Source of the DNA: an uncultured Planctomycetia bacterium
GTDB lineage: Bacteria; Omnitrophota; Gorgyraeia; Pluralincolimonadales; Pluralincolimonadaceae
Assembly (NCBI GenBank): GCA_964650515.1
Contig: CAZYUB010000001.1
Location: 65,726-129,725, forward strand
Direction of reading: 5' to 3'
DNA: 64,000 bases
Shown here: piece by piece, positions 21,018 through 39,067 of the stretch
Layout of the letters: every line of letters begins with the position of its first letter
Position numbering within the stretch: position 1 is the stretch's first letter
The notes under the pieces: model-generated
Told to the model about the DNA's origin: nothing
The model's input: only the letters and a program-made list of their open reading frames with translations
Databases searched by the model: none
Program-made: the position numbers and the translations under genes

Positions 21018-22256
21018 CTACAGTTCCAGCAGTTTCTTCTTCGGGAAGACGAGCCGCAGGAGTGGCGGGGTAACGAGCGTCGTGGCAAGCACCATTATTA
21101 CCATGGCGGAAAAGATATCTTTCTCAATTATCGAATGGCCGAGCCCAAATCCCGCGATTATCAGGCCGACCTCCCCCCTTGAGATCATCCCGACGCCTAC
21201 CCTCAGAGATTCACGGGTGTCGAATCCGGTCATCCTCGCTCCTGCCATGCTGCCGATTACTTTGGTCAAGATCGCGATGAGGGTTATCCCGGCCACGAAT
21301 ACGATATTGTCCCCGAGTTCACGCGCGTTCGCGCGCAGGCCGATATCGACGAGGAATATCGGGACGAAGAACGGGTAAGCGAACGTCTTGGCAGAATGTT
21401 CGATCTTCTCGAAATGCTTCGACCTCGTGAGCAATACGCCGCAGAGGTAGGAGCCGGTTATTGCCGCTACCTTACCTATATATTCCGCGCCCCACGCATA
21501 GAAGAACGATATGACCAGGGCCATCGCGAAGAGCGCATGCGCGGAGGTAAGCTTCACGGAAAAATCCAGTATCCTGTCGAATAATCTCACGCCTATCAGG
21601 ATCGCGACGAGGAAGAACCCCGACATCTGCAGCAGCAGCAGCGCGACCGGCCAGACGGTGGAAGAGAGCGAGCTTCCGGAGGCGCCTACCGGGCTTATCG
21701 ACAGCGCAACTACAAGGGAGAGCACGATTATGCCCATCACGTCATCTATGACGGCGGCGCCAAGTATCGTAGAGCCCTCCTTGGACTTGACCGCGCCTAT
21801 TTCGAGCAGCGTCTGGGCGGTGATGGAGACCGAAGTCGCTGTGAGGATCGTCCCTATGAAGACGGCTTCCGGAACAGGAAACCCTAATAACAGCGAAAAC
21901 CATGTGCCTGCGCCCATCGGCAATATGACTCCGCCGGCCGCCGCCCAGAAGGCATTTTTGCCGACGGCCAGGATACCTTTAAGGTCTGTCTCGAGCCCGG
22001 CAATGAACATAAGCAGGACTACGCCTATCTCCGCGATATCATGGACTATCCCGCCGATATCGGGCGCGGCTTCAGCGCCGTTAGGGATAAATATCGGCCA
22101 GCCCATCATGTTCAGCACGCTCGGCCCGAGCAACAGGCCGACAAGTATCTCGCCGAATACCGGAGGTTGTTTTATAGCGGCGCTCAAGCTGCCGATGAGT
22201 TTAGCCGCGGCTATTATTATCCCGAGGGCGAGCAAAAGCTGCATCATATGGTTCAT
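21018..22256 (-). CDS. monovalent cation:proton antiporter, CPA2 family (NapA/Kef-like)
   Basis: 412 aa polytopic membrane protein. LLALGIIIAAAKLIGSLSAAIKQPPVFGEILVGLLLGPSVLN is a typical CPA2 N-terminus. The start overlaps the atpC stop. Confidence 0.75.
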   Translation of the reverse strand: MNHMMQLLLALGIIIAAAKLIGSLSAAIKQPPVFGEILVGLLLGPSVLNMMGWPIFIPNGAEAAPDIGGIVHDIAEIGVVLLMFIAGLETDLKGILAVGKNAFWAAAGGVILPMGAGTWFSLLLGFPVPEAVFIGTILTATSVSITAQTLLEIGAVKSKEGSTILGAAVIDDVMGIIVLSLVVALSISPVGASGSSLSSTVWPVALLLLQMSGFFLVAILIGVRLFDRILDFSVKLTSAHALFAMALVISFFYAWGAEYIGKVAAITGSYLCGVLLTRSKHFEKIEHSAKTFAYPFFVPIFLVDIGLRANARELGDNIVFVAGITLIAILTKVIGSMAGARMTGFDTRESLRVGVGMISRGEVGLIIAGFGLGHSIIEKDIFSAMVIMVLATTLVTPPLLRLVFPKKKLLEL

Positions 22257-22546
22257 TCTGACTTCTCCGCGGCATCCACAATACTGATCGAATCTTCGAT
22301 CAGTATGCTGACGTTATTTTTCAGCACTTCCAATATTCCGGCGCTTTTACAGTCAAAAACTGTAACCCCTGACGTACCGTACTTTATCGTTATCTTCCCG
22401 GGCCCGAGAAGCGCTATAAGGGGCGCGTGGTCGACAAGCACGCCAAAATACCCTGATTGCCCGGGCGCTATCAATGAAGAGGCCTCGCCATCAAAAATGG
22501 ATTTTTCGGGCGTAGCTATGCTTATCTTGAATGATTTATCCGGCAT
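22253..22546 (-). CDS. atpC: F0F1 ATP synthase epsilon subunit, N-terminal beta-sandwich only
   Basis: [45 protein letters not shown] aligns with the epsilon N-domain. The protein ends at 97 aa with no C-terminal helical hairpin. Confidence 0.8.
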
Positions 22547-23960
22547 CGGTCTGTTCGCTGTCGCTCTTTAGTTTTGCGGCCTTCTCTATTGCTTCTTCGA
22601 TGGTGCCCACCATGAAGAACGCCTGTTCGGGAAGGTCGTCGAGTTTGCCCTCTATGATCATCTTGAAGCCCCTTATCGTGTCCTCGAGCTTCACGTATTT
22701 TCCCTTGAGCCCGGTGAACGCTTCCGCGACGAAGAACGGCTGCGAGAAGAACTTCTGGACCTTCCTTGCGCGCGAAACGATCTGCTTGTCCTCCTCCGAG
22801 AGCTCGTCTATGCCTAGGATAGCGATGATATCCTGCAGGTCCTTATACCTCTGGAGAATCTTCTGTACGTTCCTCGCTGTATTGTAATGGTCCTCGCCGA
22901 GTATCCTCGGGTCGAGTATCCTCGAGGTCGAATCGAGCGGGTCCACGGCGGGGTATATGCCGAGGTCCGATATCTTGCGCGAAAGGACCGTCGTTGAATC
23001 GAGATGGGAGAATGTCGTCGCCGGGGCCGGGTCGGTGAGGTCGTCCGCCGGGACGTAAATGGCCTGCACGGATGTTATAGAGCCGCGTTTTGTGGACGTG
23101 ATTCTTTCCTGCAGTTCGGCCATTTCGGTGCCGAGATTCGGCTGGTAACCTACGGCCGAAGGCATGCGGCCGAGCAGCGTCGAGACCTCGGAGCCGGCCT
23201 GCACGAACCTGAATATGTTGTCTATGAAGAGCAGCACGTTCATGCCTTCCTCATCGCGGAAATATTCCGCCATCGTCAGGGCCGAAAGGCCGACGCGCAG
23301 CCTTGCCCCCGGCGGCTCGTTCATCTGCCCGAACACGAGCGCGGTCTTCCTGACAACTCCCGACTCGTTGAGCTCGAGCCAGAGGTCGTTCCCTTCCCTT
23401 GTGCGTTCCCCGACGCCACCGAAGACCGAGACGCCGCCATGCTCGGTGGCTATATTGCGTATCAGTTCCATGACGATGACCGTCTTGCCGACACCGGCGC
23501 CGCCGAATAGGCCGATCTTCCCGCCCTTAGGATAAGGCGCGAGAAGGTCGATTACCTTAAGGCCCGTCTCCAGCATGGACGACACGGTCAGCTGCTCCTC
23601 GAAAGAAGGGGGGTCGCGGTGTATGGAATATCTTTTGTCCGGGCTTGCCAGAGCGCCTTTGTTGTCTATCGGCGTGCCCAGCAGGTTGAATATCCTGCCC
23701 AGCGTCTGCTGGCCGACCGGGACCGTAATAGGCGAACCCGTGTCGAGCGCCTTCATGCCGCGCACAAGGCCGTCGGTCGAAGCGAGCGATACGCACCTTA
23801 CCGTGTTGTTGCCGATATGCTGCGCGACCTCGAGCGTCAGGTCTATGGCCTTTTCTTTATCCTCTATCCTTACGGCATTGAGGATTCCCGGCAGTTCATG
23901 CTCGGGGAACCGTATATCGACGCTGGGGCCTATGACCTGTATTACTTCTCCGTATGCCAT
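22536..23960 (-). CDS. atpD: F0F1 ATP synthase beta subunit
   Basis: P-loop GGAGVGKTV and the DELSEED-like segment DELSEEDK are present. Confidence 0.97.
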
Positions 23961-23996
23961 TGAAATCCCCTTTTTAGAATGTATATTTTCGTTACT

Positions 23997-37898: not shown

Positions 37899-38218
37899 TC
37901 TTCCGGATTCAGTATCCTTCTGAGGTCAGGATGGTTCAGGAATTTCACGCCGAAGAGGTCGAAGACCTCGCGCTCGAGCCAGTCCGCGGACCTCCACAAT
38001 CCCTCGAGGCTTTCGACGGTAAGGTCGCCTTTCAGCCGCGTCCTGATTACCGCGGCGGCGCGGCCCTTCATAGAATAAAAGCTGTATATTAATTCGATAT
38101 GGTCCTTATTATCCACGGCGGTTATGCAGTGCAGGCTGTCGAAGCCCCTGTTGAGCAGGCCGCGCGCGGCTTCAAGCAGGCCGTCCTTGGGTATCTCCAG
38201 GGCTTCAACGTTTGCCAT
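37868..38218 (-). CDS. nuoC: NADH-quinone oxidoreductase subunit C (30 kDa), short form
   Basis: 116 aa. [22 protein letters not shown] is the NuoC signature. The gene is separate, not fused to nuoD. Confidence 0.85.
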
Positions 38219-38720
38219 GTCTCTCCTTCATTATCTTTTCCTGCAGCTTCATTATCCCGAAAAGGAGGTTCTCGGGCCTCGGCGGGCAGCCGGGTATGTG
38301 CACGTCGACCGGGATCCCGAGCGCTTCGGTCCCCTTTACGACGGAGTAGGTATCATTATAGAAGATGCCGCCGGATACCGCGCAATTGCCCATCGCGATG
38401 ACGTACTTGGGCTCGGGCATCTGGGCGTAAAGCCGTTTCATGCAGTCGCCCATCTTCACGCATATGGTCCCGGCGACTATCATCACGTCGCATTGCCTGG
38501 GGCTGGCGCGGAAGACGCCGGCGCCGAAACGGTCGATATCGAACCTTGAGGCACCCGTTCCTATCATTTCGATGGCGCAGCAGGCGAGGCCGAAGGTAAG
38601 AGGCCAGAGCGAAGAGGCCTTGCTCCACTTGAGCACGCTTTCGCTCGTCGTCAGGACGAGGTTGCCGCCGGGGAACTTCTCGATCAGGCCCGAAGCAGGT
38701 ATCTTCTCTATTACTGCCAT
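38205..38720 (-). CDS. nuoB: NADH-quinone oxidoreductase subunit B (20 kDa)
   Basis: Start is at [11 protein letters not shown] 38718-38720, overlapping the nuoA stop. Motifs [14 protein letters not shown] and IPGCPP are present. Upstream extension is rejected. Confidence 0.9.
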
Positions 38721-39067
38721 TCGAGGGCCCCTTTCTTCCACGCATATATGAGGCCGGCTATCAGGACCGCGATGAATACCATCATCTCGGCGAAAGCAAT
38801 GACGCCCGACTCGCGGAATATGACCGCCCACGGCACAAGGAAGAGTATTTCCACGTCGAACACGACGAAGATAAGCGCGATTATGTAATAACGGACATTG
38901 AATTGTATCCAGGAATTGCCCCTGACCGTCTCGCCGCATTCGTAGCAGGAGTTCTTCGCGGGATTAGGGTCCCGCGGGCGCAGGAACCAGGAGACTATGA
39001 ATGCCCCGGCAACGAAAGCGATGCCGAAGAGTAGAAAAAGGCCTGCGTACCCGTAATCTGCGATCAT
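38711..39067 (-). CDS. nuoA: NADH-quinone oxidoreductase subunit A
   Basis: 118 aa three-helix membrane protein. YECGE motif is present. Confidence 0.85.

Follow-up and report, generated by a model that had tools for sequence, protein, structure and literature searches.

Why should the genes for a complex I, an F1Fo ATP synthase and a cation/proton antiporter lie end to end in one genome, and are they expressed as one unit? The question is raised by a 64,000-nucleotide stretch of DNA from an uncultured Planctomycetia bacterium placed by its GTDB lineage in the Omnitrophota (contig CAZYUB010000001.1, positions 65,726 to 129,725), here called the window. In it, 22 open reading frames (ORFs), all without internal stops, occupy the minus strand from position 21018 to 39067. 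Pfam and NCBIfam assign them, in the direction of transcription, to nuoABCDHIJKLMN, a retropepsin-like protease gene, atpZBEFHAGDC and a CPA2 antiporter gene (cpa2). The block lies between a divergent cspA-like gene (39332-39532, plus strand) and a convergent pyrE (20445-21014, plus strand). With four gene starts refined by comparison with the relative L001, it spans 18,050 nt, against summed gene lengths of 18,126 nt; 15 of the 21 junctions are overlaps and the widest gap is 40 nt. The nuoN stop is followed after 2 nt by the protease ATG, the protease stop after 12 nt by the atpZ ATG, and atpC overlaps cpa2 by 4 nt. A preliminary description of this DNA had listed 22 minus-strand genes from nuoA (39067) to the antiporter (21018) with these three junctions; all coordinates and ORFs hold, and the junction lengths are exact. 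Each of the modules belongs to a known family, and what is new is their arrangement with an embedded protease. We consider it likely that the block represents a lineage-specific, stable juxtaposition of four modules, forming a predicted nested operon that would be proton-coupled.

Homologs of the protease, one of them 100% identical, assign the window to Candidatus Omnitrophota. The genomic contexts compared were obtained from protease homologs, from an unbiased, AtpB-anchored metagenome scan and from one GTDB locus. The nuoA-N, protease, atpZ-C order is kept in every recovered relative whose AtpB is at least 70% identical, namely in contigs L001/L086, L085, L088, L089, L091, L090, L005, L098, L101, L102 and P0031. 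The clade with this order comprises about eight lineages, with GC contents ranging from 0.44 to 0.56 and identities of 67-97% for NuoN and 40-89% for the protease. Synonymous divergence (dS) relative to L001 is ~0.6-1.3, meaning that synonymous sites are near saturation, and the flanking csp/NUDIX and pyr genes are retained in L001, L101 and L102. Since the order is conserved among relatives, the arrangement is not a recent accident, which the preliminary description had entertained. Neither nuoN nor the protease was found upstream of the Omnitrophota-like atp operons of L092-L096 (AtpB 46-59% identical), and the atp operon of L103 has neither nuo nor protease genes upstream.

Among bacteria at large the arrangement is rare. 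A GTDB scan with NuoN, which is dominated by a universal motif and contains one Omnitrophota locus only, was used as the background set for rarity; it returned 80 loci from many phyla, 64 of them with at least 2 kb of sequence downstream of nuoN. The atp genes immediately follow nuoN at one of these 64 loci, the Omnitrophota one. Locus L029 (11354-17282), the only other one with atp genes near nuoN, was considered as a parallel and rejected, because three unrelated genes (HAD hydrolase, GlpD-like and GDPD) intervene, leaving 3.5 kb between nuoN and atp. The atp genes of this high-GC, unrelated bacterium are atpZ-atpI-atpB-atpE only, followed by a Rex-type repressor gene and mfd, and thus make up a split Fo cluster.

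A published precedent does exist: in Bacillus cereus, B. anthracis, B. thuringiensis and Geobacillus kaustophilus the atp cluster and an 11-subunit nuo cluster are neighbours (Moparthi & Hagerhall 2011, PMC3144371). The preliminary description had called the arrangement unusual, which is borne out by its rarity among the nuoN loci and qualified by these neighbouring clusters. The Bacillus and Geobacillus loci resemble the present one in that an 11-subunit complex I operon without the N-module adjoins the F1Fo cluster. According to the published description, on which this comparison is based, nuo lies in Bacillus between the atp cluster and murA, whereas here nuo is followed by atp. Furthermore, no protease or antiporter gene is reported from the Bacillus cluster, whereas both are present here, with junctions of 2 and 12 nt and no terminator. 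Surveys of the Omnitrophota have noted complex I together with an F-type ATPase in some orders (PMC10066038; bioRxiv 10.64898/2026.06.07.730766), and our literature search found no published mention of a nuo-atp fusion or of an embedded protease.

The preliminary description had also taken the minimal junctions as a mark of fusion. The spacing itself is as described, but overlaps also occur at 13 of 28 same-strand junctions outside the block in the 64-kb window, where the median gap is ~0-1 nt. Compaction is thus a property of the genome, and minimal junctions alone do not establish a selected fusion. Tight spacing is weak evidence for a special fusion, and the persistence of gene order across lineages near synonymous saturation is stronger evidence.

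This compaction bears directly on another explanation, in which the block is a by-product of genome streamlining, maintained by inertia without any selected co-regulation, and the protease is a mere neighbour. Such an origin would fit the tight packing across the window, the presence of a promoter-like element for each module in at least some lineages, the loss of cpa2 without disturbance to the remainder, and the finding of protease family homologs next to unrelated genes in Elusimicrobiota and other Omnitrophota. It fits less well with an order that persists at dS ~0.6-1.3 relative to L001 and through a GC drift from 0.56 to 0.44, with a protease that has diverged to 40% identity in place while never being lost or moved within the clade, and with a nuo-then-atp succession at only 1/64 nuoN loci. 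We regard streamlining alone as a doubtful account of the block, albeit one to be taken seriously. A horizontally acquired island was also considered and is ruled out, as the GC content is uniform over the window and the csp/NUDIX and pyr flanks are kept in L001, L101 and L102. The block is the sole long minus-strand segment, nearly all other genes of the 64-kb window being on the plus strand; the sign of the AT skew flips across part of it, and L001, L101 and L102 show the block in this same inverted orientation with respect to their csp/NUDIX and pyr flanks.

How, then, might the block be transcribed? A sigma70-type promoter, here termed P_nuo (39125-39154, minus strand; TTGACA-N18-TATAAT), matches the consensus at 12/12 positions and lies 57 nt upstream of the nuoA ATG; its -35, its -10 and blocks of the 5' untranslated region (5'UTR) are conserved in L001, L101 and L102. 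Terminator-like sites number 16, against 17.9 expected in shuffled sequences, and none falls at any block junction, the scan being one for intrinsic terminators only. Both the nuoA promoter and the lack of an internal intrinsic terminator had been noted in the preliminary description and are upheld here. Since the block leaves no room for a terminator, read-through from P_nuo is plausible. RNA polymerase initiating there would meet no terminator and would probably continue through the protease gene into atp and cpa2.

A second site departs from the earlier claim that the block has only one good promoter. This promoter-like element, P_atp (28689-28717, minus strand; TTGAGA-N17-TGgTATAAT), matches the consensus at 11/12 positions and has an extended -10; the 3' end of the protease gene contains its -35, and its -10 is immediately followed by the atpZ ATG. 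Only five TGNTATAAT sites are present in the 64-kb window, and the other four include the csp promoter and a site 14 nt 5' of a MazG-like gene. The hexamer TATAAT stands immediately 5' of the atpZ ATG in 9/9 lineages examined. The three bases that precede it are TGG in the WIN group, TGA in the L001 group, L101 and L103, TGC in L102 and L090, TGT in L005 and TAA in L098, so that the TGn extension is found in all lineages but L098. The spacers upstream of the conserved TATAAT vary from 6 to 70 nt and are otherwise unalignable, while -35-like hexamers (TTGAGA, TTGAAA or TTGAAT) occur 17-18 nt upstream in WIN, L090, L005, L101 and L098. The motif at the atpZ start (window positions 28686-28697, minus strand) is also seen at the atpZ starts of L001, L005, L085, L088, L090, L098 and L101-L103. 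As L103 carries a stand-alone atp operon, the motif is a probable ancestral atp promoter, retained after nuo and the protease gene moved upstream; such, at least, is what its distribution suggests.

These observations bear on the possibility that the block is a single polycistronic operon, transcribed from the nuoA promoter only and hence strictly coordinated in expression, in line with the one apparent transcription unit of the preliminary description. The single direction of its genes, the overlaps at 15/21 junctions with a maximal gap of 40 nt, the absence of terminator-like sites at the junctions (2 nt from nuoN to the protease gene and 12 nt from there to atpZ) and the perfect consensus of P_nuo are all in keeping with it. 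However, the extended -10 at the atpZ start is kept across nine lineages, L103 with its stand-alone atp operon among them, and L090 and L098, in which the spacer between nuoN and the protease gene is longer, have -10-like hexamers 6 nt upstream of the protease ATG. Moreover, complex I and ATP synthase would need very different subunit amounts, a demand that one promoter would serve poorly. We therefore judge a strictly single-promoter operon to be unlikely, and the description of the block as one transcription unit with a single good promoter is weakened by the conservation of the element at atpZ. Most likely, the atp block keeps its own predicted promoter and read-through from nuo comes as an addition to it. 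P_atp would add nuo-independent transcription of atp and cpa2, giving a nested operon in place of a single-promoter unit.

Several points weigh against a nested, proton-coupled operon. The last base of the P_atp -10 occupies position -1 of the atpZ ATG, so that transcription would be expected to start ~7 nt inside atpZ, and transcripts from P_atp could not translate the conserved ATG. Either AtpZ would be made from read-through transcripts alone, or the motif would have another role, for example as a translation signal. The -35 element is also poor in the L001 group. Both promoters and the read-through are predictions from the sequence, and, with the scan covering intrinsic terminators, Rho-dependent termination or RNA processing could still act within the block. 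The ion specificity put forward below is likewise a reading based on motifs, and nuoEFG could sit elsewhere in the genome.

A start inside atpZ has a counterpart in Escherichia coli, where minor promoters inside atpI bypass atpI. A leaderless atpZ mRNA was considered as a general explanation and rejected, as the -10 ends at -1 and an in-frame GTG is present at the expected start only in L103. Matches to the Rex operator TTGTGA-N6-TCACAA, with at most 3 mismatches, number 12 against 10.5 expected, none of them in a promoter, and there is no sign of Rex control. An Rfam scan of the whole window returned only a tRNA at 2542-2615 (tRNA-Glu by ARAGORN), with no riboswitch or leader RNA.

The csp-nuoA intergenic region (39068-39331) is 91% identical to that of L001, although the dS of the neighbouring genes is 0.6-1.3. 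Within it, two promoters that match the consensus perfectly stand back to back (39154-39125, minus strand, and 39180-39207, plus strand), and the csp 5'UTR is long (~125 nt) and highly conserved. Between positions 20200 and 40100, sigma70-like matches number 31, against 11.5 ± 3.4 in shuffled sequences (~2.7-fold), and TATAAT is enriched in the window (44 against 26). The sequence TATAATATG is seen 4 times against 0.3 expected, three of these within coding regions. At 52766-52789 (minus strand), TGCTATAAT lies 14 nt 5' of the ATG of the MazG-like gene, which has no Shine-Dalgarno sequence; a leader of ~7 nt is implied, and this organism may commonly use mRNAs with short leaders or none.

What kind of complex I does the first module encode? 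All eleven nuo genes are contiguous (29849-39067) by Pfam and NCBIfam. The gene for NuoA (118 aa; 38711-39067) is an intact ORF that is 82-96% identical in relatives, PF00507 having been matched on the relatives' ortholog. It is followed by nuoB (171 aa; 38205-38720), which exceeds the cut-offs of NF005012 (224.7 bits) and TIGR01957 (222.4 bits), by a short form of nuoC (116 aa; 37868-38218; PF00329, 1.2e-33; below the TIGR01961 cut-off) and by nuoD (374 aa; 36774-37898; PF00346, 8e-100; NF004739, 483 bits against a cut-off of 360). The remaining genes are nuoH (314 aa; 35833-36777; PF00146, 3.2e-120), the ATG of which overlaps the nuoD stop; nuoI (132 aa; 35438-35836), with two [4Fe-4S] sites, a Fer4 match and a TIGR01971 score of 108.5 bits, below the cut-off of 113; nuoJ (34903-35469; PF00499, 2e-38); nuoK (34601-34906; PF00420, 1.7e-23); nuoL (620 aa; 32745-34607; PF00361 and PF00662); nuoM (492 aa; 31267-32745; PF00361); and nuoN (473 aa; 29849-31270; PF00361), with a TTG start and a 4-nt overlap with the nuoM stop. 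The starts of nuoH, nuoI and nuoN follow L001.

No nuoEFG genes are present in the operon, nuoD being directly followed by nuoH with a 4-nt overlap, and none of the three was found among the ORFs called in the 64-kb window, Pfam having been run on a subset only of those outside the block. NuoD begins with GPQHPSTHG, ends in DVVMGEIDR and has no CxxC pairs (the NiFe ligands); hydrogenase models score ~20 bits against the 483 bits of NF004739. The lack of CxxC pairs and the NF004739 match together mark NuoD as a quinone-module type and not as a NiFe hydrogenase large subunit, and NuoB retains the cysteines of cluster N2. The same nuoABCDHIJKLMN operon without nuoEFG is known for the compact complex I of Chlorobi, cyanobacteria and chloroplasts, Crenarchaeota and some Firmicutes, from which the present one differs by its unusually short NuoC of 116 aa. 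This complex I would pump protons. Among 176 complete Omnitrophota genomes, nuoG is found in none and the membrane and Q-module subunits in ~11 (PMC10066038; bioRxiv 10.64898/2026.06.07.730766); the 2026 preprint reports nuoE and nuoF from some Omnitrophota and nuoG from none (bioRxiv 10.64898/2026.06.07.730766).

The ATP synthase module opens with atpZ (86 aa; 28428-28688), encoding an AtpZ/AtpI-like small membrane protein (PF09527, 6.6e-8). The eight core subunit genes follow in the order B-E-F-H-A-G-D-C, each above the Pfam gathering score: atpB (Fo subunit a; 27707-28456; PF00119, 9.5e-46), atpE (Fo subunit c, 76 aa; 27436-27666; PF00137), atpF (subunit b; 26929-27426; PF00430), atpH (delta; 26384-26932; PF00213), atpA (alpha; 24847-26382; PF00006, PF00306 and PF02874), atpG (gamma; 23997-24863; PF00231), atpD (beta; 22536-23960; PF00006, PF02874 and PF22919) and atpC (epsilon, 97 aa; 22253-22546; PF02823 over residues 6-84). 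A strong AGGAGG Shine-Dalgarno sequence precedes atpE. The canonical atp operons of E. coli and Bacillus, with a leading atpI or atpZ, have the same Z-B-E-F-H-A-G-D-C order and the same eight core subunits. Unlike in these, however, a -10 here abuts the atpZ start, epsilon has no C-terminal helices, an antiporter gene is coupled to atpC, and nuo and the protease gene precede the operon without an intervening terminator. The epsilon subunit consists of the beta-sandwich only, positions 2-86 of the 130 of the TIGR01216 profile being matched, and has no C-terminal helical domain; its length in relatives is 86-92 aa, against 97 aa here. In many bacteria this helical domain inhibits ATP hydrolysis, and an epsilon lacking it may leave hydrolysis less restrained.

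Is the circuit one of protons or of sodium? The preliminary description had left both open. Na+-binding c-rings have a Gln in helix 1 and Glu-Ser/Thr in helix 2 (Q32, E65 and S66 in Ilyobacter tartaricus). The subunit c encoded here reads ...GSAIALG...RQPE...IEALTIY, and a manual alignment on the RQPE loop places Leu26 at the helix-1 Gln position and an Ala after the carboxylate Glu. As the Na+ ligands are lacking, proton coupling is the better inference, and the F1Fo is more likely proton-coupled; the proton alternative of the earlier wording is favoured by the subunit c motif, whereas the sodium alternative lacks its ligand pattern. A Na+-binding c-ring was accordingly rejected on the Leu at the Gln position and the IEALTIY of helix 2. 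N-ATPase operons have the order atpD-C-Q-R-B-E-F-A-G, no delta and Na+ ligands in subunit c. An N-ATPase was also rejected, given the canonical F-type order, the presence of delta and a subunit c without the Gln and Ser/Thr ligands. The glycine motif GxGxGxG of helix 1 is degenerated to G-S-A-I-A-L-G in atpE; in alkaliphilic Bacillus, c-rings of altered size are known to have some of the Gly residues of this motif replaced by Ala.

A full sodium circuit would pair a complex I that pumps Na+ with a Na+-coupled F1Fo and a Na+/H+ antiporter. The coupling of a cation/proton antiporter gene to atpC would suit it, as would the presence of AtpZ-type genes in the Na+-coupled N-ATPase operons as well. 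We nevertheless hold it to be very improbable: subunit c has Leu for Gln and Ala-Leu after the Glu, the gene order is the canonical F-type one with delta, unlike that of N-ATPases, and the trkA-trkA-trkH genes behind the atp-cpa2 unit of L103 suggest K+ homeostasis.

The antiporter gene itself (412 aa; 21018-22256) encodes a bare membrane domain without KTN/RCK, spanned in its entirety by PF00999 (213.9 bits, cut-off 26.2). Its best NCBIfam match is TIGR00932, at 174.8 bits and thus below the cut-off of 238.3. The protein is in these respects comparable to CPA2 members without KTN (NapA/GerN-like) and, distantly, to KefB, KefC and YbaL, with which PF00999 is shared. We know of no characterised CPA2 member whose gene is placed right after atpC with an overlapping stop and start. 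The antiporter would exchange K+ or Na+ for H+.

The preliminary description treated the antiporter as part of the cluster, but it is not a fixed member. While cpa2 follows atpC in L085, L088, L101, L102, L005, L098 and L103, it is absent from the L001/L086 sub-lineage, in which atpC is directly followed by the convergent pyrE. Where the two genes are adjacent, they overlap by 4 nt or stand 2-8 nt apart in six lineages, one of which is L103. The latter is distant (GC 0.40, AtpB 51%) and has atpZ to atpC followed by cpa2 after 2 nt, with neither nuo nor protease. An atp-cpa2 link in the absence of nuo means that this link is wider, and it is probably older, than the one joining nuo, protease and atp. 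In the same region of L103 (10001-14208), cpa2 is followed by trkA, trkA, a 42-aa ORF and trkH, a K+ transport set, and these neighbours point to K+/H+ homeostasis. The antiporter of the window is 82% identical to those of L085 and L088, where AtpD and AtpC are 92-99% identical, and the antiporter of contig P0126 is 94% identical; the cpa2 end of the cluster thus seems to evolve faster or to exchange alleles. In L104 (1-9620), an ORF of more than 5,000 aa lies beside a CPA2 homolog (59% identical) that is unlinked to atp; giant ORFs are a known trait of the Omnitrophota.

What is a protease doing between the two operons? The gene (381 aa, predicted secreted product; 28701-29846) matches PF13650 (61.2 bits) and PF13975 (60.2 bits), the Asp_protease_2 and gag-asp_proteas families of clan AA aspartic proteases, both above the cut-off, while TIGR02281 scores 53.2 bits against a curated cut-off of 57.95, so that the protein is not a member of that family by score. 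The VDTGA and GLLGM-F motifs are invariant in an alignment of 30 sequences. In an AlphaFold2 monomer model (mean pLDDT 85.9), the signal peptide is followed by a small beta-barrel (residues 29-71), then by a helical hairpin of ~175 residues and, at the C-terminus, by the retropepsin domain (residues 251-380). Foldseek retrieved APRc (5c9f) as the best PDB match of the retropepsin domain (E=1.2e-8, TM-score 0.72 on target) and also the FIV protease, and the small barrel resembles Sm/Hfq (Sm/SH3-like) folds. APRc (RC1339 of Rickettsia conorii; 5c9f and 5c9b) has the DTG motif and a single-lobe fold, which would have to dimerise, in common with the present protein; identity is 20-24%, and APRc is anchored by N-terminal membrane helices, whereas a signal peptide, an Sm/SH3-like barrel and a helical hairpin stand in their place here. 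In Pseudomonas, RloA is encoded with RimB in the rloABC operon beside transglutaminase-like and ATP-grasp genes. Secreted retropepsins of the RloA/RimB type were rejected as a parallel, since by description they differ in context and have a simple signal-peptide architecture.

The protease evolves faster than its neighbours, at 40% identity where NuoN is 67-72% and AtpB 70-84% identical. Its dN/dS is 0.10-0.12 relative to three relatives, similar to that of atpH and nuoD, which indicates a functional gene under purifying selection. The product would be a functional periplasmic or secreted enzyme, with its position between the operons kept throughout the clade. The full-length homologs (27-38% identity) of other Omnitrophota and of Elusimicrobiota have unrelated gene neighbourhoods, which include glycoside hydrolase and type IV pilus/T2SS loci. 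The varied contexts suggest that the family is one of general envelope proteases, one member of which became fixed between nuo and atp.

It is possible that this member has a dedicated role in maturing the complexes: acting in the periplasm in the maturation or quality control of complex I or F1Fo, it might, by analogy, trim a periplasm-facing end of subunit a or c, as the mitochondrial Atp23 does for Atp6. The position between nuoN and atpZ is strictly conserved in all clade members, the gene is under purifying selection with its catalytic motifs intact, and the signal peptide would bring the protease to the membrane face on which, by their topology, subunit a has its N-terminus and subunit c both its ends. 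Against such a dedicated role, AtpB and AtpE have no obvious cleavable extension, full-length homologs of the same architecture lie beside type IV pilus, glycoside hydrolase and other genes, and the atp-cpa2 unit of L103 is without any protease. On balance, we find a dedicated maturation factor decidedly unlikely. The same caution applies to a joint proposal in which, alongside protease maturation, the TGnTATAAT-ATG element may set the dose of the assembly factor AtpZ relative to the structural subunits via read-through transcripts; we would put this forward only as a long shot.

Elsewhere in the window, two adjacent genes (40708-42967) encode secreted proteins with PEP-CTERM-type sorting signals, the second recognised by eye and without a Pfam match. 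They are followed by genes for a P-type cation ATPase (42995-45661), a MarR regulator and an 880-aa DUF2339 membrane protein.

The likely impact of these findings is modest, since the modules belong to known families, atp and a compact nuo have been described as neighbours before, and the findings demonstrate no new mechanism. The block does, however, provide a compact 18-kb cassette for the heterologous study of an 11-subunit complex I, and the retained protease and the promoter-like motif at the atpZ start make two small testable puzzles. If the maturation reading were true, the protease would be a bacterial functional analogue of mitochondrial Atp23. If the arrangement is selected, one nested unit of a reduced genome would express the main proton pump together with the ATP synthase and a transporter for ion homeostasis, which would bear on how these complexes are balanced in uncultured Omnitrophota with a minimal respiratory chain.

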